The notes beneath the pieces are model-generated. The model searched no databases, was not told where the DNA came from, and saw only the letters and a program-made list of their open reading frames with translations. The translations under genes were made by a program, and so were the position numbers. Shown here piece after piece: positions 1 through 14,866 of a stretch of DNA of 15,354 nt; positions within the stretch are counted from its first letter, which is position 1; every line of letters starts with the position of its first letter. The DNA lies in the NCBI GenBank assembly GCA_051294375.1, contig JBJCIZ010000921.1, positions 1-15,354 of the forward strand, read 5' to 3'. This DNA is from Paraspadella gotoi. Its lineage: Eukaryota > Animalia > Chaetognatha.

Positions 1-1880
1 ATATATGATTTATATGTCTGATAATATCATTTTCCAAATAACTAATTTATCGGTTTTGTTATCTCAAACTAATCATCCTTTTATAATATCATCACCTCTA
101 ATTTGGTTTCCTTAAATATCATATGTTTTAAATTTGATTTACTTTAAATATCATCATTTTTTAAGTAAACCGTAGTTATATCTACAAATCAGTTTTCTTG
201 TTATTAATATCATTTTTCCAGATAACTATCATCGGTGTTTTTACTTTAACTTCATCTCTTTTACTTAAAACAATCATACAACTCCTGCAAATTCAGGTTT
301 TCTCTTCCTTAAATATCACTTTTTTAATATCATACTTTATTAAATTATACATCATTTTTAAATTATTCAAAAGTAACTCCGCTAAAATCGAAGTTCTTTT
401 ATAAGTAGCTTTGCTTCCAAATTATAACACTATGCTATCGGTTTTACTAACTATTTCCTTTTTTAAATGATCTAGCCTATCATACTCCATAAATCGATTT
501 GCCCTCTTAAACTATCAATAGCTTTTGTGTTTTTACGATATTGATCATTTACTTTAAAATATCATCTATGAATATAAATAACTGAGAGGCTAGAATTCAG
601 AGGTTATCCCTTTTAAGTATCCATTTTCTAATTACAAATAATATTATAACTATATAATCGGTTTTTACTTTATACTTTATCATTAATTACTTCTTTTTTT
701 ATAAAAATATTATTCATCAACTACTAAATTAAACTCTAGTGTTTTCTTTTCTTTTTATAAAGAATAATTATACCCTATTCTTTTTTTTTCTTAATTCAAT
801 AATATCATTACTTGTTAGTAAATGAAAAATATCATCTATATTTTATTAGATATTTCATCTTATGTTAACTACTAAATCTGTTTCACTTTTAAATTCATTT
901 TTCTAAATAACTATCATCGTTGTTTTTACTTTTAACTATCTGACTTTTTAAATATCATTCAACTAATAAATTCGTGTTTCCTTTTAAATATCATCTTTTT
1001 TACTTTAAATATCATTGTCTCCTCTAAAATAACTATCATCGTGTTTTGTTTATCATTTTTAATTATCAGTAATTCTAAATCGATCACTTTTTAATAATGT
1101 TTTTTCAATAAACTATCGTGTTATTTTAACTCAATCTTCTATTTTTCGATCCTATCATCAAGGCTAATAAACATTACTTTAAATACTTCTCATATATCAC
1201 TTACTTTTAACTATCACATAAATACAAAATAAATGCGTGTTCCTTTTAGAATATATCATTTTTTATAATCATTTCTCCAAATAACTATCCATCCGTTTTT
1301 TTACTTTATCAATAATATCATATATTTTAAATATATGTACTCACTATAATACGTGTTACTTTTTAAATAATCATTTCTTCCAAATAACTGATCAATCGAT
1401 TTTTTTTACTTTTTTAACTATCATCCTTTTTTTAAATATCATAACTACTAAATCGGTTTCCTTTGAATATCATCTTTTTTTAAATATCATTTTCTCCAAA
1501 TAATTATCATCCGTGTTTACTTTTAAAATTATCATCATTTTTTATTAATATTACACAACTAATAAATCGGTTTCTTTTTTAAATATCATTTTTTCAAATG
1601 ACTATTCATCCGATTTTTTTACTTTTAACTATCATTCCTTTTTATAAATATCATTACCTTCCTAAATTGGTTTCCTTTAAAATATCATTTTTCAAAATAA
1701 CTATCAACGGTTTTCTTACTTTTAACTATCAATTCTTTTTCAATATCATAACTAATAAATCGGTTTCCTTTTAAATATATCATTTCTCCAAATAAACTAT
1801 CATACGGATATTGATCTATTTTTACTTTTTATACTTTTGACTATCATCAATTTTAAATATATTTCCAGGATATACTATCA
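1..1880. repeat. Satellite array, ~85-95-bp monomers (approx. consensus AACTCCTAAATCGGTTTCCTTTTAAATATCATTTTTCCAAATAACTATCATCGGTTTTTACTTTTAACTATCATCCTTTTTAAATATCATC), truncated by the window start
   Basis: AAATCGGTTTCCTTT, AAATATCAT and AAATAACTATCATCGG recur at ~90-bp spacing (e.g. ~1450, ~1563, ~1663, ~1757). Copies are noisy with many indels. Confidence 0.95.
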
Positions 1881-1981
1881 TAAATTTTTATTAATTTTGT
1901 TTTAATTCTTTCCTTAGTAATATTACTCTTTTCTCGTAGTTTTTTTGAGTATTAGGACACAATAACAGTTTATGACAAGCA

Positions 1982-4900
1982 TTAAATTGACACACAATTT
2001 AGCAGATCACTGTTCGGCTCTTCACTTAGAGCCATTTTTCTTTTATCCTTTAAACTACATCTAACTCCTTTAAAACTATCATCAATCTATAACCTATAAT
2101 ACAAATCACACTAATATTTCAAAAAAATCAAGTTGCAATTGGTAATAGACTTCATATATCATTAAATCAATACGCACAAATTATTAAAAAGCTTTGAATC
2201 TCTCGAAGATGGATGTTTATTCTAGTTACATAATAATGTTTCTTTAGTGCAGCTTCATTCATATTCATTTCATATACAACAACACTTTCAAATAAAGTCA
2301 TTTCAAACCATTATCTCATGTAGTTCTGGAGAAATAACTTTATACCATCAGTCAATATTTTTTGCTTTCAATTCTTTAAAGGAGTGAAGGACTGTTTTTG
2401 TTACCGACTTCTCTTGGAGGGAAATATCTTCTTTGTTGTGTTCTGAAAGAATGAGAAAAGTAATTCATTATAGGTTTTAGTGTTTAATGTAGTTTTAAAA
2501 TTATAACACACGCTAAAAATTTTATTTTCAACTACTAATTGTATTTTTTAATTCTGAAACTTGAAGGAAGAGTTTTTTTATATTAATTTTACAATGTTTT
2601 ATTAATATTACTTTATTTATCATTTTACAATGTAGAACAGTTTTTATTTTCAGTCAACGTTTTTTTTTATGAATCGGACATGTTTCGGTTCTTATTTTGA
2701 ACCTTCATCTGTGCAATGATTGACATTTTTTGAAATTGATTATTAATAATGAGTGAGGGAAATAAGAACTGAAACTTCTCCGATTCATAAAAGTAAACAT
2801 TGTTAGCAGATAATCAAAACTCTTGTACTCTGTAAACTAATTTTAAGAACAACAAAAAAGAATGGAAACTATACAATTTATTTATCATACGGTTTTATAC
2901 GATATTATTACGATATTTTATTAAACCAGGTTGTTAGTGTTTCTGACAATGTCACCAGTTAGATAGTTTGCATGACACAAATTTTACACAAATTTTACAA
3001 TAACAATTTTGGTTTCTTGCCTGCAGCAATGACACCGCTTGCTGAAGATGGAATCTTTGGACGTCAGTCAAAGATAATATTTCTCCCGTCATTCAAATTA
3101 TCTAAATAAAAAAATTGAATTAAATATTAGAAAAAAATTTAAAAGCGTAGGAGGAAGACAAACTTCTTAAATTTTTTAATATTCTGTAGTCTATACCGCG
3201 TGACTATTTTCAACCCACCACTAGAAAAATTCACCATGCATTTTTTCAACTTGCATCATTTTTTCAACTTTCATAATTTTTTAAGTTGCATCATTTTTTT
3301 TAACTTTTATAATTTTTAAAATTTTCATAATTGGATCATTTTTTCATAGTTTCATCATTTTTTCAACTTTCTTTTTTTTTTATACTTTCATCATTTTTGT
3401 TACTTTCATCACTTTTTCAACTTGCATAATTTTTGCAACTTTTATCATTTTTTCAACTTGTATAATTTTTTAAACTTGCATAATTTTTTAAACTTGCATA
3501 ATTTTTTTCACTTTAATTAATTAATTATTCAATTAATTAATTAATTAATTAAAGAAAATATTTATGAGTGAGCATAAATTATAAAAAGTACAAATAGAAA
3601 CTATAAGCAAGTAATGGTTTGCTTAATCCAAGTTAGTACTAGTATGAATGGGGCATGAAATAGTAATTTTGTTTATTTAATAAATTAAACGAATGAATGT
3701 TATTGATTTACTCAGTATTTCAATAAAGTTGAATTTAATAATTATTATTAAAAGCAATGTTGTTTATGGTAGTCTGTTATTTAAAACCTGCATTATTTAA
3801 GAACCAAACAACAAAGGGCAAAATAAATAATTGTGTTATTAATTCATTTATAGTACACACCAATCCCATGTAATGCAACTGCAAAGTATCTTGATAGAAA
3901 ATGCAAAGAAATACTTACATTTGATTATACCCAATACTAAACCAGATGATTAATCGTAATGAGAGTCAGAAGGCGTACATCACCTGAATTAATGGTGTTC
4001 TTTCTGCAATAAAGTTTTAATAATTAATAGGAAGATCATTTTGTATGAAGTTAGATTAATATGCAACAACCAAAAAAAGAAAGAAAATATAAGGATAAAC
4101 TGAAAAAATATTATTCTTTTTGTGTTTGTTTAGGTTTTTATTATTGTATCTTTGTTACTTTTTTATGAAGTTTTAAACTATTCTTATGATGCAAACAGCA
4201 AACTTTTAAACTACTTTAAAGCATAAAAAAATCTAAAAAGTTATACTTACATTAACGTTAAAATTATTTAGGTCCAAAAATAACACTTTATGTTAGAAGG
4301 AGTAATATTATTTCTAGCATCTAATGAAAGTTTTACCTAAATAATAAAATTTTAATTAATACTGAGACAGTTTTTTTTTTCAATTTACAAATATGCCTAT
4401 ATTTTATTTACTTTTTAATGTCACTTAATATTTAAAAGAAATTACACTGCAGACCATATCAAGAAAATCAAACAATGAAAACTATTAATTATGAAATAAA
4501 TAAAGTTTGAAAGAGAGATTTAAACAACGATTGTTTATTTCATAGTGAAACGGACATGTTTGGACTCCACAACGAACATGAAAGGAAAAAACACAATATG
4601 CAAATAATATAATTTTTTTGTTCAACTTATAAAAAAGGAGAGCTCCCTCATTTAATTGTCAACTAAATTCAGTAAACAATTCTTGCACAACTGACTTATT
4701 AGTAGCTCATTTATTCTTGTGATCAACGATTTCTATCTCCAGGGACGCGTTAATGTCCAAATTAGGAGATTTCTGACATTCCTATGTATATATGTATTCC
4801 AATCTTTTAACATAAAACTCACAACTCAATCAGGCAACATTGCTTGCGACATTTTTTAATTTATTAATTTCTCATTCCTTCTCTCTACTTCTCTCTCTCT

Positions 4901-5790: not shown

Positions 5791-7361
5791 TCCAAACACT
5801 TTATGAAATTGAAATCTGCTTTAACAAGTAAAACATTGATGTAGTAATACAAAAAAATATAACAATTTAATAACCAATTATAAAATATTGACCTCAAACA
5901 CAAAAACCGGGAGGTTCAATACATGCTCTGCAGAGACTTTCTTTTGTCATTGCGGCGCACATGAAATAATAAAACCTTATCAGATAAATATTCAAACAGT
6001 CAGGAACTGAATAATACACCAGAATTCTTAAAATCTTTATTCCTTCAGACAAGCACATAAATGTCCCAAAATTTATGAAGTAATGAAATCATAAAGCTAA
6101 AAAGATCTTTTCATTTCAGTCCTATTTATAAAGTTTTTTTTCAAAATATTGATTAGATTTTTGCTAAACTTGTAAAGTTGTAAGTAATCAATGAATTACT
6201 CAAATCTTAATTTAGTAATCATATCATAAATTAACCAAATATCCCTGAAAAAATTTTCAGGACAGAAAACATTTTGTAAAAACTAATGTTGAAAAATCAG
6301 ATCAAAACTTGGAAATCCCATTAGGGCACACCTTTTACACTACACAAGCTAATTTTCATAAAAGTTCATAAATCAATCAAAAAAAACTCAAACGCATTAC
6401 TTTATATTATTAAATTCAAGTATTAGTTGTTAAGAAGTTTTTTACTACACTGTAAATTTTTAATTTAAATGATTAAATTTAATTAAGAGGTGTACGTGAA
6501 AAAAAATATGTTAACTAAAATCTGTCTTTTTTAGTGTCAAGTATTTTATGATATTGGATAATAAGCTAATTTTATAATTTTATTGGTATATAAATGAACA
6601 ATGAAAGTTTTCCTGGAAAAAACCAGTTTAAAAGATAAATAACCTACAAGGTAGTGATTTAAATCTTAGAAAAAGTATTTATCAACAGATTTTATAGGCA
6701 AAAAGTTATTAATTAGATTTTTATAATACACTAAATAACATAATTTTTTTCTCTTAACATCAGAAAAAAGCATTTTTGACAAAAAATATTTGAATACGCA
6801 TAATTTATGGTCATGATAGATTATTTTAACGCTGTAATTCATAAGCATTTAAATTTCATCGGCTATGGCTAACTAAATATGTTTATGTTCCCAAACAGTA
6901 TGTTAAGTTATTAAGAAAGCTTTTAATAATATGAAAACTACTATTTCTAAGTCGGGAAACCGTGCGCAAGTCGCTGAGTCGATCAGGGCCATTTATAAGG
7001 ATGCGTCGTATTATATTAATAATTAGAACAACATCTGGTCAATTATATTCGCATTAAATTTTTTTCTTTAAATGCACCCAATGCGTCACAAAATAAAAAA
7101 GATGAAGTGATACGGATGTTTTAAGTGTTTGAATCACTACCTGTACATACAAAAAATAATTTTCACGTCACTGAAAGCCAAAATCACTTCAAATGATTGA
7201 AGTTCAGTCACATTCAAAAGTAGAGAAGGTAATTTGATATTGACTATTGATATGTATTGTAGCCGAGTTTTTGTAAGTCAGTTTTTATCAGCTTTATATT
7301 TCCGATTACTTGATCTTCAGTTTTTTTTACGTAGATGACGTAATATCTCAAAGTTTTTATT

Positions 7362-8547
7362 CTAACTTGAGGACCATGAAGTAGTTTTGAGAACTTTGTG
7401 TACTTCTTTGATTATTTCAATTGATTTAGGCTGAGTAAAAGGGAGACTTGGGCTTTGCATACTTCTCAAATTTCCATCCGAGGTACAGATTTTGGAATTT
7501 TTTTCAAGTGATACCAGTCGCATTTCAAGTGAAGAAATTTTTTCCATGGCTGAGTCGAGTATCATATGAACATTATCTAATATAATCTTAAAATCCTCAT
7601 CTATTTTTCCGCATGTGGAGTATGAATTCTCATTTTCTGTTTCTTTTTTCTTTTTGCAACAAAACTACACCAAATTTTAAATAAGTAAACATAATAAAAT
7701 GGTTGTGATAAACATAATTGTGAAAACAATTACTTTTACCAGCTTTAGACAAAAAATATTTAGTCCCAAAAATTTCCAAGATGTATATTGAATTCAAATT
7801 CTTTGAATTTTTAGCAATTTTTGAATTGATTTTTGTTGAAAGAAGCTTAGTTATATCATATCAAATAAATGTTTCATGTGTTAAAAGACTGGATGAAAAT
7901 AAGTTGAATTCCGGTTTCTATAAGAGATAGATTTTCCAATTCTTTGACCAGTAATCCATTAAAGTTTGTTTTAAATTGCTGTTATTGGTATGATTTGTAC
8001 ATGCAATTTCTTTGCTGTGCAAACTTAAAGATTTTGTCTCATTGTTATAAAATAACTTTTTTCCTGACCTGGTTATCACTTCTGGAAACTCGTAACATAC
8101 ATCATTTTTTTGACTGACCTTGACAGAAACTTTTGCACATTTTAAAAGATATATCATGTTTCCAGAAAGAATAAATGTTTTTCCATTGCCATTTACTGGG
8201 TCAATATTTTGAACTGAAAAATACCCATATTTCATTACATTTAATAGTGCAGTTTCTCTTGACCAAGGATTTAGAAATTTAAATCCTGACAACCTAAATT
8301 CAAAGGCTGTGTTGTTCCCACTTCTTAAAGCATTACTTTTGGTCTCTTGCCCAATAATGGTGCTGTTTTGATCAAAACAGTTGTAAGCCATGAGACTGTT
8401 TGTTTGTAGAAAAAAATTAGCCAACAAAATTAGTTGAATAGCTATTTCCATTAAATTTTTGGTTGTTTCATGCTGTTTTTTGCTGCTGTTTTTTTTATGA
8501 TGAAGCATATTCATTGCTGAATGCCTCTTATATGGTTTAATTTTCAT
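7362..8547 (-). CDS. Apparently intronless type I membrane glycoprotein, shortened class III viral fusogen-like (herpesvirus gB / chuvirus G / nematode retroelement env-like); frameshifted between ~7920 and ~7660
   Basis: ORF 7918-8547 has a signal peptide from Met33 (ATG at 8451; MEIAIQLILLANFFLQTNS), then LMAYNC, then NIDP..GKTFILSGNMIYLLKCAKVSVKVSQKNDVCYEFPEV..LFY..LSLHSKEIAC. This follows the gB pattern GDVMAVSTCVPV..CYSRPLV..IEPC and the equivalent chuvirus-like pattern as I recall them. Five N-glycosylation sequons lie after the signal peptide. Downstream, with frame changes: hydrophobic VIVFTIMFITTILLCLLI (~7680-7733), then FCCKKKKETE running in frame into ORF 7362-7565 (cytoplasmic tail). 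Confidence 0.75.
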
Positions 8548-8804
8548 TAAATGTTTTTCTTAATTTAATTGTTTTTGCTTTTGTTCCTTTTTTTATAATT
8601 TATTAATACTCTAAAATTTACCTAAAAGACCAAAAAATATTCAAAAATAATCAACTGTACAAAAATTCGTACATTTCAACATAGCTTGAATGTTTTGATG
8701 CCAAATGTTAATTTCACTAATCACCAAATTAAAATAGGGTATTTTGCCACTTTTTTAGCAATATAAAAAAGAGAAACAAATAGTCTTATGCAAAAATCAA
8801 ATTA

Positions 8805-9995
8805 CAATTTTGGCTATATTTTGAGCCTAAGTAATAGTTTTTTTTCTATGAAAAGTTGAAAGTTTTTGCCAGAGAATATGGACTGGCCAGAGATTTATTC
8901 TTTGATTTTTAGTGGTGATCAGTTTTTCTTTTTGAGCCGATCAAAGGGAAGGAAAAAAATTGAAGACGACAGTTTTTAGGCAGCTCATTATTTCCTACAT
9001 CATAATTTTAAATTTATTAATTTTATTCCTATATCATTCCTATAATACAACATCATTCTCCTGATACCTTTTCAGTGGCACTGTTCCGTCCCTCCCTATT
9101 GGCAGACAATGGGAATTTGGAGCTTTTGATCCGAACAACTCAAAGAGAATTTGTGAAGGGGAGAAACGTTTTTTGATTGCCAGTTTTTGTTGAGGAGTTT
9201 TAGAAATCCTGAAATAAATGATGCTTTTAAGCAAAAACAACCTTACAAATATAAAAGTAAAAACTTCTGTCTTTCTTTTTTAGTCGGATCAGTTTATCAA
9301 CAGATTCTGACTCTATAACCCACTTCGTCGGCCCGTCGGTCCACCCCCACCATCTTGTCGGTCATTCACTTAAATCATGCTTGAATGAGAAAACAAAGTG
9401 TATTTTTGTTTACAAACAACGATTTTTAATTTTGAAATGGACATGTTTCGACTGTTTTTTGAATCTTCTTCATCACCTTGCGCTGAAAAAGACTCGAAAA
9501 AGATTTGAAACATGTCCATTTGAAAAAAAAATTGTTGTTTGTAAACAAAAATTAACTTTGGTTTCTCTCTCAATTTTAAAACGCAACGAAACAAAAGTCT
9601 TTTAACTATGAATAAATTATGCCAAAAAAATTATGTCTGTCCGTAAGTCAGTCTCTCCATCCACATGTCCATCCGCCCCCCCTTAGCAAAAAACTCCAAT
9701 TACTAGGTTGAGTGAATCGCAGATGCTCATAACCGGTTCAGCCCCTAAAAAATGCTCTAACGTCAGTTACCTGCCATGTCGATCACTGATCCATTTGTCA
9801 AGGAAAGAACGTCTTGTTTGGGCTTCAACAGATGTCAATTGGCTCTTTTCCAAGCCAAAAGAAGGGTTTGATGATTTTGCTTTTCTAAGGCTAATCCTAA
9901 TCATCTTCTTTCTTAACAAAATTGTAATGGTCTTTAGTATCTATACCATCTGATACCATGAGGGTTACTCCTATCTTTAAAGTTTGTAAATTACT
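8805..9995 (-). CDS. Spliced gene, probable BEN-domain DNA-binding protein
   Basis: Exon-like blocks: MIRISLRKAKSSNPSFGLEKSQLTSVEAQTRRSFLDKWISDRHG (~9771-9905), AEPVMSICDSLNLVIGVF.., KWVIESESVDKLIRLKKKDRSFYFYIC, ISKTPQQKLAIKKRFSPSQILFELFGSKAPNSHCLPIGRDGTVPLKRYQEND, EIMSCLKTVVFNFFP..WPVHILWQKLSTFHRKK. The last two fit the BEN pattern LL..LF....L..H.L.G....PL....I...V...FP...W..I..K. Gene ends are approximate. Confidence 0.55.
9386..9572. mobile_element. Intronic palindromic element (~88-bp arms, ~11-nt loop) with two oppositely oriented hammerhead-like motifs
   Basis: Arm 9386-9472 is the imperfect reverse complement of 9484-9572. The opposite-strand ORFs 9370-9594(-) and 9381-9605(+) share IFVYKQ and KIVVCKQK, confirming the palindrome. 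Motifs: minus 9473-9440 AUGAAGA-A-GAUU..AGUC-GAAA-CAUG-UC; plus 9483-9516 CUGAAAA-A-GACUC..-GAAA-CAUG-UC. Confidence 0.85.
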
Positions 9996-10466: not shown

Positions 10467-12300
10467 TTAAAAGATAGTTCCCGAGATATCATTGCTAATT
10501 TTATTTTCAAAACTTTTACTTTGCCCTCTTAAAGATGCCTTTCCACTGTCTGTCCTAAGACTCGTCTTAAGGGCTGTGCGAGTTAAATCATTTTGTCTGA
10601 ACCATGAATATTCCCGTTTTAACCTAAATGTGACGGTTAAAGAAATCCAGTGTCAGGAGGTAACTATGGGTCCACAGCCCCTAAACAAGTTGGTCAGATA
10701 CCCCCCCTCGGATATCACAGGCTGTCCTATAAGTATTAAGCCCTTTGCCCATACATGGAGTTGCTTCACACTGACACAACTAAAGGTATGTAACTTAAGG
10801 TATGTCTAACATGGCTCTATCTTTCTATCCTTTCACTATAGCCGCAAAATCAATACCCTCATTTGGACAGAAGTCAGGACCCTGCACAGCAATGATTTCT
10901 AACAAGGCTCTAAAATCTAATAGTTATTTTTTTAATATTAGTTTGTACATAGGAATCTTGTAATTTTTTATTCTAAAAGCACATTCAGACAGTTGAAAAG
11001 TTTAAAGTTAAAAAGTTGTTCTTACAAAGTATAGATTACAAGACTACAAAATTACAAGAGGCTACTTTTTTTGCACAGCAGCGTATTAACATTTTTTTAC
11101 AATTGTCTGCTTTGTAGGTAGGATCTAATGCATCCAGGTTCTCCATGTTACTTCTACAAGACCTTGCTGTACTTATTTATTCATTATCATGCAATAATTC
11201 AAAGTATACTTCATCATCTTCTGTTATGTCTTCAATATTTTCCAATTCTTGTTGACTATAAATATGAGTTATTTTTTCACCAAGCTTGGCAATTTCATTT
11301 TGTAAAGCTACTTCAGCTGATCTAAAAAAAAAATTAAAGACTTTAGGCCTGAACTTAAGTGGAATTTTTAACATTGTGACATTTATCTATCGATGAAGTA
11401 AATAGTCAAAATAAAACCCATCTTCCAGACAGTGGCGAAGGGCAACATAAAAGGGTCATTCCAAAGGATGTTCTCTGGGGACGTACAAAAAAGTTACACC
11501 CATGTTTGCTCATTGGGGAATGGTTTCTTTGGCACTTAGCGGCAACCATATGGTAGATCCACTCAGGGCCAAAAAACCGCTATCCCCTCTGTTTTCCACC
11601 TTCTTTAATCAATATTTTACTTTACATTGCTTTTATTTTGCTATCTGTATCTTTTAATAAAGTTTTCTCTTTCTCTCTCTTTTCTCCCTATTTTCTCCAT
11701 CTCTATTTTTAAGTTATTAGATAACATTTTAAAGAATTTGCAGGTTAGAATTGTATTGGTCCTATTAGCTACATGTATTTTAAACTATTTCCCTGGAGAA
11801 AACCTTGGGGTTGCCCGAGGTTAGTTTTGCTCTGAAAGAGTTAGTGTTTGAATGGTGATGAACTACCACTAACCCTGATGGTTGTGGTTTAAAAATTAGA
11901 TTTACTCGACATTTGTGTGTGGGCGGGGTTGTTTTATTTCTAACCTGAAACCCTATCGTTTTTAGAAAAACAATTTTGAAAATCTTTTCTAAACAAGCTC
12001 ACTAATCACCTGGGATAACCTAAAAATTATTTTGGTCATACCTTGACATGATAGATCCAGGTTCACTATATCCAAACACAAACATAGAAAAAATTATATA
12101 ATCCATCTCTTTCAATGTTGAAGCCCAAAAAATAGCCTTGTAGCAACTTATTAAAAACGCACGTTCTTTTTTTCTTGATTTTTCAATAACCGCTGCCACA
12201 TTATATTTCATGATAGCGGCCATATAATGGCTGTAATCTGAATTTGATAAATGTAGTTAATCATTGTTATAATAAAATTTAGAAAAAAATATATATGCTA
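10467..12300 (-). CDS. 3' part of a spliced Mutator/Foldback (NOF-like) DDE transposase
   Basis: TTFIK(F/L)-DYSHYMAAI (DxxH at 12227-12238; one indel assumed) is followed by RAFLISCYKAIFWASTLKEMDYIIFSMFVFGYSE. Then PFYVALRHCLEDGFYFDYLLHR..KIPL|SA (~11310-11450) and QQGLVEVTWRTWMH.ILPTK with a candidate catalytic Glu at 11152-11154. The last coding block ends LKREYSWFRQ..NDISGTIF* (stop 10467-10469). Motif order matches NOF-type MULE transposases as recalled (T.IR.D.AH; FY..CI..L....T..E...I.......SE; NPFY..PLWS; T...VE..F..LK..IL). Confidence 0.6.
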
Positions 12301-13795: not shown

Positions 13796-14866
13796 CAATC
13801 AACTCCTAAATCGGTTTCCTTTTAAATATCATTTTTCCTTTTTAAAAATTCAGTTTTTTACTCTTTTAAATATCATCACTTTTTTAAATATCATCAACTC
13901 CTTAATCCGGTTTTCCTTTTAAAATATCACGGTCTTTTTTTAAATATCAATTTCTCCAGCATACACTATATCCGTCTTTACTTTTAAAATAATCATCATG
14001 TTTTAAATATCAGTAGACTACTAAACGGTTTCCTTTTAAATATCATTTTTCCAAAGATTAACTATCACTTCGGTTTTTACTTTGTATACTATCATCCTTA
14101 TCTGTGTAATTCATCAACTCCTAACATCGGTTTCCTTTTAAATATTCATCTTTTTTTAAATATTTCATTTTACTTTAAAATATCATCATTTTTTAATTAT
14201 CAGGTAACTCCCTAAATCGTTTCCTTTTAAATATCATTTTTCAAATAACTATTCATCGCGTTTTTTACTTTTAACTATCATCCTTTTTTAAATTTATCAT
14301 CAACTCTAAATCGGCTTTTCCTTTAAATAACATCTTTTTTTTAATATCATTTTACTTTTAAATGTAGTCATTTTTTAAATCAGTAACCTTCCTAAATCGT
14401 CCAAATATCATTTTTGCCCATACACAAAACCGTGTTTACTTTTAAACTATCATCACTAAATATCACAACACCTAAACAATCCATTAAATATCATTCTTCA
14501 AATAAACTATCATCCCGTGTTTTACTTTTTAAATACATTCATTTAATAAGTCATTCAACTAAAAATCGTGTTCCCTTTAAATATCATGCTTTTTTAAATA
14601 CATACTTTTAAATATCATCATTTTAAATACAGTACTCCTAAATCGTTTCCTTATAATATTCATTCTCCAAATAACTATCATCGATTTTTTACTTTTAACT
14701 ATTCATCCTTTAAATATCATCAACTAATCCTAAATCGTTCCCTTTTAAATATCATTTTTTTTAAATATCATTTTTACTTTGTAATATCATTCATCACTTT
14801 TAATATCATCAACTCCTAAATCGGTTTTCCTTTTAAAGATCGGTCTTTTTTTTAAATATTCATTTT
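13796..14866. repeat. Second array of the same ~90-bp satellite (~12 monomers), same orientation as 1-1880
   Basis: AACTCCTAAATCGGTTTCCTTTTAAATATCAT-like starts at about 13801, 13896, 14016, 14116, 14206, 14302, 14385, 14467, 14557, 14633, 14722 and 14811. Confidence 0.95.

Follow-up and report, generated by a model that had tools for sequence, protein, structure and literature searches.

The window analysed here, a stretch of 15,354 nucleotides from Paraspadella gotoi, is AT-rich and indel-rich, with microsatellites and high-copy short repeats. Its minus strand carries an intronless open reading frame (ORF; 8547..7918) for a protein of 209 residues, P0001, which as the window stands contains exactly four cysteines, Cys57 (in AYNC), Cys137 (YLLKC), Cys151 (VCY), and Cys183 (EIAC), six N-glycosylation sequons (residues 20, 61, 78, 169, 185, and 188), and a hydrophobic stretch at residues 35–53 (hydropathy, 1.48). 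The original prediction had described a miniaturized ectodomain of the glycoprotein B (gB) type, reduced to the domain IV (crown) module, in which signal peptide, glycans, and membrane anchor were retained and the fusion machinery removed; the four cysteines and the 80-residue first spacing from which it set out match the translated ORF exactly. As had also been claimed, the ORF is the longest unbroken one of the window, among 37 frames of at least 60 residues, and extends over 213 codons from stop to stop, the runner-up (171 codons) lying inside a microsatellite. When the entire window was block-shuffled 200 times, a frame of at least 213 codons appeared in 4 cases, so that the length alone is only modestly unusual; when the 190-codon stretch of P0001 itself was shuffled, none of 20,000 shuffles was free of stops. 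The N-terminal 32 codons (8452..8547, minus strand; Met at 1, 12, and 14) are basic and polar, and may be untranslated if Met33, where the profile of full-length relatives described below begins, is the start.

The ORF was compared with the short-read contigs of six runs; among eight runs, from two studies, five contain part of it. X1 and X2 come from one of these studies and are possibly the source of the window. The X1 contig spans 7071–8829 as one piece, the X2 and X4 contigs also cross the ORF without an internal joint, and the X6 contig of the second study, which is bisulfite-like with all of its listed changes being G to A, covers 8020–8457 with no gap. Because all four cross the junction with neither a gap nor a joint, the short middle part of P0001 is not an assembly collapse; a longer allele, which the original prediction had named as a possible objection, was found in none of the short-read contigs of the two studies. 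At 80% likeness, X1 and X2 each gave one long contig and no second long piece, contigs being a record of presence and not of absence. From ~7975 to 8620, the X1 and X2 contigs are identical to the window (80% likeness, among the differences listed), and from 7615 to ~7975 they depart from it by at least 18 gap letters and 8 substitutions. This stretch of disagreement (7615..7975) includes the stop of the ORF and the frame changes before a downstream hydrophobic stretch; the reads thus support residues 1 to ~190 of P0001 and leave the stop and the ~18 residues before it doubtful. In X8, a possible RNA run, the gene is without cover, which is evidence neither way on expression. Over 7071–9587, indel-dense patches alternate with read-identical ones (8003–8298 and 8923–9587), a pattern that looks like a partly polished long-read assembly. 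At 8829–8923, the X1, X2, and X4 contigs have 88 other letters in place of the 93 of the window, with both flanks matching well; this difference is a local misassembly, a small inversion, or an allele.

In a Pfam search, P0001 matched the family PF24664 (Monjiviricetes_fusion) at 31.1 bits (gathering cut-off, 27), with residues 119–186 aligned on profile positions 365–430 of 653. Five full-length relatives (L004, L006, L020, L022, and L024; 638–730 residues), all on viral contigs of IMG/VR, were drawn from the 3 + 11 viral loci of two family-motif scans, the other loci being unrelated and dropped; two of the five were tested with Pfam, and both are strong PF24664 members. Their contigs are negative-strand-virus-like, with differing gene orders and with neighbours resembling polymerase or nucleoprotein genes. 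The profile built from the five matched P0001 at two places, with positions 1–29 on residues 33–61 (E, 1.5e-4; score reached by 0 of 500 shuffles) and positions 365–433 on residues 119–189 (E, 1.1e-12). The first match, together with the hydrophobic stretch at 35–53, supports the claim of a retained signal peptide on the basis of hydropathy, and corresponds to the signal-peptide-like stretch (residues 33–53) and the AYNC motif with Cys57 (8365..8451, minus strand). The second covers Cys137, Cys151, and Cys183 (residues 119–189; 7981..8193, minus strand), a region comprising the last β-hairpin of domain III and most of the domain IV crown. The four cysteines of P0001 are thereby placed as the first and the last three invariant ectodomain cysteines of the full-length glycoproteins, in line with the mapping originally proposed.

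P0001 thus resembles the gB-like glycoproteins of Jingchuvirales/Monjiviricetes (PF24664) in having a signal peptide followed by AY-x-C and then by a K-C...C-Y...C pattern, with 24–33% identity to the five full-length proteins in the crown region. It differs from them by the absence of about 280 residues and of 8 to 10 ectodomain cysteines between the first and the second cysteine, the cysteine spacing being 80/14/32 in P0001 versus 354–361/13/31 in the five. The loss had been put at ~450 residues by counting on herpesvirus gB; as the nearer relatives are of the chuvirus/retroelement type, it amounts to about 275–280 residues instead. In place of ~335 residues of the full-length relatives, P0001 has a middle part of 57 residues (8194..8364, minus strand), modelled as a confident strand and then low-confidence helices, in which no sub-window has a significant place in the full-length profile; it likely represents domain III remnants, by sequence not assignable. 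The missing domains were sought in the remainder of the window, and none of the other 663 six-frame pieces (664 in all) matched the profile, the next E-value being 0.86. We also considered an upstream-exon reading, a TTTTCAG being present at 8222–8216, and set it aside because the signal and the first cysteine share the frame and the window holds no domain I/II piece. The absence of the fusion machinery, with no match to it in the window and no longer allele in the reads, stands.

A HMMER search among 1.84 billion representatives returned two proteins. One of them, P0003 (297 residues; ENA; longest contig, 1114 bases), was found with an E-value of 6.9e-4, which is borderline library-wide; the other, P0002, is a surface protein of bacterial type that is full of repeats (4770 residues; E, 1.6e-9 as the sum over the repeats), and was regarded as a chance match because its cysteines are unmatched. 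P0003 and P0001 are colinear over 132 columns with 25% identity and all four cysteines matched (z, 21.7; 0 of 2000 shuffles), and have in common the same 80-residue gap (cysteine spacing of P0003, 80/13/32), a last cysteine interval longer by one residue than in the five long proteins, and a stalk shortened to a similar extent, P0003 having its transmembrane helix 82 residues past the last cysteine. On the five-sequence profile, P0003 gave an E-value of 5.6e-8, with a weak N-terminus (score reached in 12 and 126 of 500 shuffles); Pfam itself gave no match to it. Residues 76–171 of P0003 aligned on 341–439 of L006 with a probability of 88%, a range that starts at the base of the central helix and includes the helix cysteine. 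In the Atlas, P0003 lies among class III glycoprotein clusters (score, 0.93, a recognition value under the strong range of the tool), its look-alikes being clusters that are 75–100% viral, and P0001 as the query gave no usable match. A tree on 65 columns (unrooted, with long branches) separated the two short proteins from the five long ones with a support of 94/96, P0001 being equally identical (33%) to L004 and to P0003 in the shared region. The middle parts of P0001 and P0003, when aligned alone, are no more similar than expected by chance (z, −1.1).

Since P0003 has the same 80-residue spacing, the comparison suggests that the two proteins form a small family; the short build is at any rate not unique to P0001. 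Three word-index protein searches (with P0001, with P0001 at longer lengths, and with the alignment of the pair) gave no further member, the last of them returning P0003 itself, and the protein searches gave no orthologue of P0001, the protein collection also containing no entry for four start variants of it. In the viral collection, the short form was found neither by protein scans (with P0003 and with the pair) nor by motif scans, the motif derived from the short forms giving 7 loci, none related; a motif scan of prokaryotes gave 20 loci, again none related. Metagenome loci L001–L003, short weak matches among pattern-selected candidates, were rejected.

A structure model of P0001 residues 54–190 was built on a seven-row alignment including P0003 and five natural C-terminal stretches, and had a mean pLDDT of 71.7, being confident in the first 20 residues and the crown and poor in the middle. 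An earlier model of P0003, based on two sequences, had a pLDDT of 38.9, and none of the rows obtained with it in a fold search passed E ≤ 0.001. In a Foldseek search of the PDB, the P0001 model gave no row at E ≤ 0.001 either; the best row was the isolated domain IV of pseudorabies virus gB (E, 0.02; TM, 0.38), and all but one among the matches listed were herpesvirus gB. In BFVD, nine rows were found at E ≤ 0.001, all of them glycoproteins of chu-, rhabdo-like, or related negative-strand RNA viruses, a match that is partly circular because the alignment for the model was chosen from this glycoprotein family. Row 43 of the same search, UPI000C6F440E (254-residue target; 149 columns aligned; E, 0.14), is possibly another short form or a fragment. 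VIA-align, used as a second look at the candidates from Foldseek, placed model residues 1–134 on residues 113–637 of HSV-1 gB (PDB ID: 2GUM) with a middling Z-score of 5.0 (root-mean-squared deviation, 4.8; 107 residues); the first 38 rows were all herpesvirus gB, and the first unrelated row scored 3.0. The structural match to gB called for by the original prediction leads in both Foldseek and VIA-align, with middling scores. Sequence searches of the PDB with P0001, with the pair, and with a full-length relative gave no relevant match.

At the ends of the VIA-align alignment, residue 54 of P0001 lies at residue 113 of HSV-1 gB and residue 187 at 637. Cys57 would accordingly fall at Cys116 and Cys183 at Cys633, if the alignment ends are in register; the crown bond of HSV-1 gB is Cys116–Cys573. 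In that protein, domain III comprises residues 500–573 and domain IV residues 574–667, with bonds Cys596–Cys633 and Cys133–Cys529 (PMC13398477); the crown is described as discontinuous, with an N-terminal strand tied to it by a disulfide (PMC12240383), and domain definitions of gB-type proteins are outlined elsewhere (PMC4617298). In this numbering, the region immediately N-terminal to the second cysteine, which is what residues 119–136 of P0001 match, belongs to domain III. Moreover, 107 residues align, versus ~70 from domain IV in that range, and P0001 is therefore to be described as crown plus neck. The claim that essentially only the crown is kept holds in so far as domain IV is present with its cysteines, and fails for residues 119–136. 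The model also seems to be devoid of the last part of domain IV.

Domain I with the fusion loops and domain II, the PH domains, are absent from P0001. The long central helix of domain III is absent as well, short low-confidence helices being modelled instead, and both cysteines of the disulfide linking the central helix to the N-terminal segment are missing. The domain IV crown is present by the profile and fold matches, with two cysteine pairs predicted to be bonded. Although derived from the PF24664 family, P0001 does not qualify as a class III fusogen, given the domains that define this class. Compared with herpesvirus gB (HSV-1, 2GUM; pseudorabies domain IV, 5YS2), the model shares the crown but lacks domains I and II, the long central helix, and a match to domain V, with 12–21% identity in the structural alignments; as a natural protein, it resembles the domain IV of pseudorabies virus gB that was engineered in isolation.

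The membrane anchor was claimed to lie within the ORF, where the best C-terminal 19-residue hydropathy is only −0.53; no anchor is present there. A transmembrane-like stretch (7680..7742, minus strand; hydropathy, 2.6) is located downstream in a frame other than that of the ORF. The distance from the last cysteine to this stretch is ~88 codons, as compared with 82 residues to the transmembrane helix of P0003 and 121–128 in the full-length relatives, and the stalk of P0001 is likely ~40 residues shorter than those of the PF24664 glycoproteins. The stretch falls out of frame where the reads disagree with the window, which makes the stop of the ORF doubtful, and it is likely the anchor of the gene encoding P0001. 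Following it, a frame of 100 codons (7356..7664, minus strand) starts with a basic cluster and ends with a stop (7364–7362) directly before AATAAA (7361–7356). This frame, in parts of which the reads deviate from the window, gave no Pfam match and is a possible cytoplasmic tail. Just downstream of the gene, 6760–6871 and 7053–7141 show a very high summed contig depth with many loose ends and are likely other high-copy repeats.

Among 118 frames of at least 38 residues in this indel-rich 15-kb window, no gene of a transposon or a virus, such as gag, pol, polB, or capsid, was recognized; these are 118 of its 137 frames, those of the repeat-rich left end and the microsatellite having been left out. 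The window also contains no pair of long terminal repeats, and Rfam gave no match. Two palindromic elements at 9381–9573 and 2624–2836 (self-inverted, 81% and 69%) are related to each other, the former lying under very many contigs in four runs, like a high-copy MITE. An 18-base tandem array (14.4 copies) occupies 3239–3507 and, when translated from the minus strand, gives a six-residue repeat rich in lysine, methionine, and valine, with stops. GC-richer frames of 69–112 codons at 10471–10809, 11180–11386, and 12023–12256, without a Pfam match, may be fragments of exons or of old elements. Both ends of the window (1–2000 and 13800–14860) are occupied, in the same orientation, by a dispersed, degenerate family of repeats that has a strong C/G skew.

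In the read-supported part of the ORF, one CpG was observed versus 13.7 expected (TpG+CpA, 1.48). The ORF bin is the lowest in CpG among 31 bins, and the five viral genes give 0.39–0.88. A CpG content as low was reached in 0 of 5000 synonymous resamplings and in 66 of 5000 codon shuffles of the ORF, so that neither amino-acid content nor codon order is a ready explanation of the loss. The loss is consistent with an ORF that has stayed open over a long period in a genome that methylates its DNA. The single CpG of the ORF reads as converted in the bisulfite-like X6 contig (depth, 3.5); the interpretation by methylation concerns past exposure and not present-day methylation.

Several known systems resemble the present one. 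Endogenous relatives within PF24664 include the envelopes of Anakin BEL-Pao elements and solo glycoproteins, as reported (PMC7642597 and PMC10084718), and copies derived from Jingchuvirales are described from arthropods and nematodes in the latter (PMC10084718). The solo chuvirus glycoproteins of mosquitoes have been put forward as antiviral receptor blockers (PMC7642597). Envelopes of the gB type are also reported from errantiviruses of many phyla (PMC13524379) and from Mavericks (10.1101/2022.07.12.499685). P0001 is like the HSV/gB-type ENV of errantiviruses and MFUS-1 of Mavericks in belonging to the gB-type genes of invertebrate genomes, with a signal peptide and one transmembrane helix (a likely one in the case of P0001). 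It is unlike them in that ENV and MFUS-1 (866 residues) reportedly keep all five domains with fusion loops and sit inside elements; a donor among them is possible. Refrex-1, FeLIX, and Suppressyn are reported to be co-opted envelopes that have lost the fusion part and kept the outer domain. The likeness is a functional analogy only, these proteins being class I, C-terminally cut, and mostly secreted, whereas P0001 is class III, internally deleted, and likely anchored. In the literature searched, in which few subscription journals were covered, we found no account of a gB-like protein shortened internally.

We propose, with a probability of about 0.5, that P0001 is a shortened relative of the chuvirus/retroelement gB-type (class III) glycoproteins, likely kept for a long time as a non-fusogenic surface glycoprotein that would interfere with the entry of related viruses or retroelements. 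Compared with those glycoproteins, it is missing the domain with the fusion loops, the second of the PH domains, and the larger part of the central helix. The remaining protein would be secreted and form two disulfides in a rigid crown-and-neck fold, held above the membrane by a stalk of ~80 residues and anchored by one transmembrane helix. As it has neither fusion loops nor a long helix that could refold, P0001 is predicted to be unable to fuse membranes. As its most likely use, which is the least certain step of the proposal, it might tentatively be supposed to occupy the receptor of a cognate full-length gB-type envelope, or to join the trimers of that envelope and poison them; this proposal follows the one made for solo chuvirus glycoproteins and the analogy with the truncated retroviral Env factors. 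It is conceivable, though we would hold it as doubtful, that a ‘mini-gB’ family exists in invertebrate genomes, composed of class III fusogens cut once, long ago, to a conformationally fixed crown and neck on a short stalk, and retained by the hosts in a role equivalent, for class III, to that of the restriction factors derived from Env.

Other origins of the short form were weighed against this proposal. It may be an accessory glycoprotein of an unrecognized virus or mobile element, working alongside a full-length fusogen in attachment or as a decoy, the window then holding an integrated copy. P0003 coming from an ENA assembly, the viral character of its Atlas look-alikes, the intronless ORF, and the carriage of the family by chuviruses, Anakin/BEL-Pao elements, errantiviruses, and Mavericks are all compatible with such an origin. 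We nevertheless consider it rather unlikely, in view of the lack of element genes among the 118 frames of the window, the failure of protein and motif scans to find a short form in the viral collection, a CpG loss far beyond that of the five viral genes, and the single long contig per run for X1 and X2 (contigs showing presence, not absence). An improbable explanation is that P0001 is a piece of an endogenous viral sequence in decay, its internal deletion being private, and that P0003 has undergone a separate deletion of equal length. Arthropod genomes commonly hold solo and defective chuvirus glycoprotein copies, the frame of the window breaks past residue ~190, the protein searches gave no close relative, the two short proteins are not alignable by their middle parts alone, and a frame this long occurs by whole-window shuffling in the 4 of 200 cases given above. 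The frame breaks are, however, confined to where the reads disagree with the window, and 190 read-supported codons have stayed free of stops, as in none of the 20,000 shuffles, despite the heavy CpG loss. Furthermore, P0003 shares the 80-residue gap, the extra residue between the last two cysteines, and the similarly shortened stalk, and an equal spacing from two free deletions is, by a rough estimate, a ~1% event.

The remaining alternative takes the stop near 7918 as real and the product as a secreted, anchorless crown and neck serving as a soluble decoy, or else assigns the protein to adhesion or signalling, not defence. The ORF as assembled indeed has a signal-like stretch and no anchor, and secreted truncated Env proteins of mammals are reported to restrict retroviruses (PMC9245640). 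We regard this as distinctly improbable, because two samples deviate from the window just before the stop and a strong hydrophobic stretch follows downstream at a distance like that in P0003.

The co-option of class I retroviral Env is well known, and an antiviral role of solo chuvirus glycoproteins has been proposed, not shown. If P0001 is only a private, decayed fragment, it represents an ordinary endogenous viral element. As a class III protein without fusion domains, found twice with 25% identity and the same spacing, it would amount to a natural domain-deletion experiment. In gB, domain IV stays in place on the domain III base as the protein passes from one state to another (PMC13398477); P0001 would isolate this part of gB, which is immobile during fusion, and make its binding testable for the envelopes of chuviruses and retroelements. 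If the ‘mini-gB’ interpretation is true, it would hint at the crown being the receptor- or partner-binding module of these envelopes.
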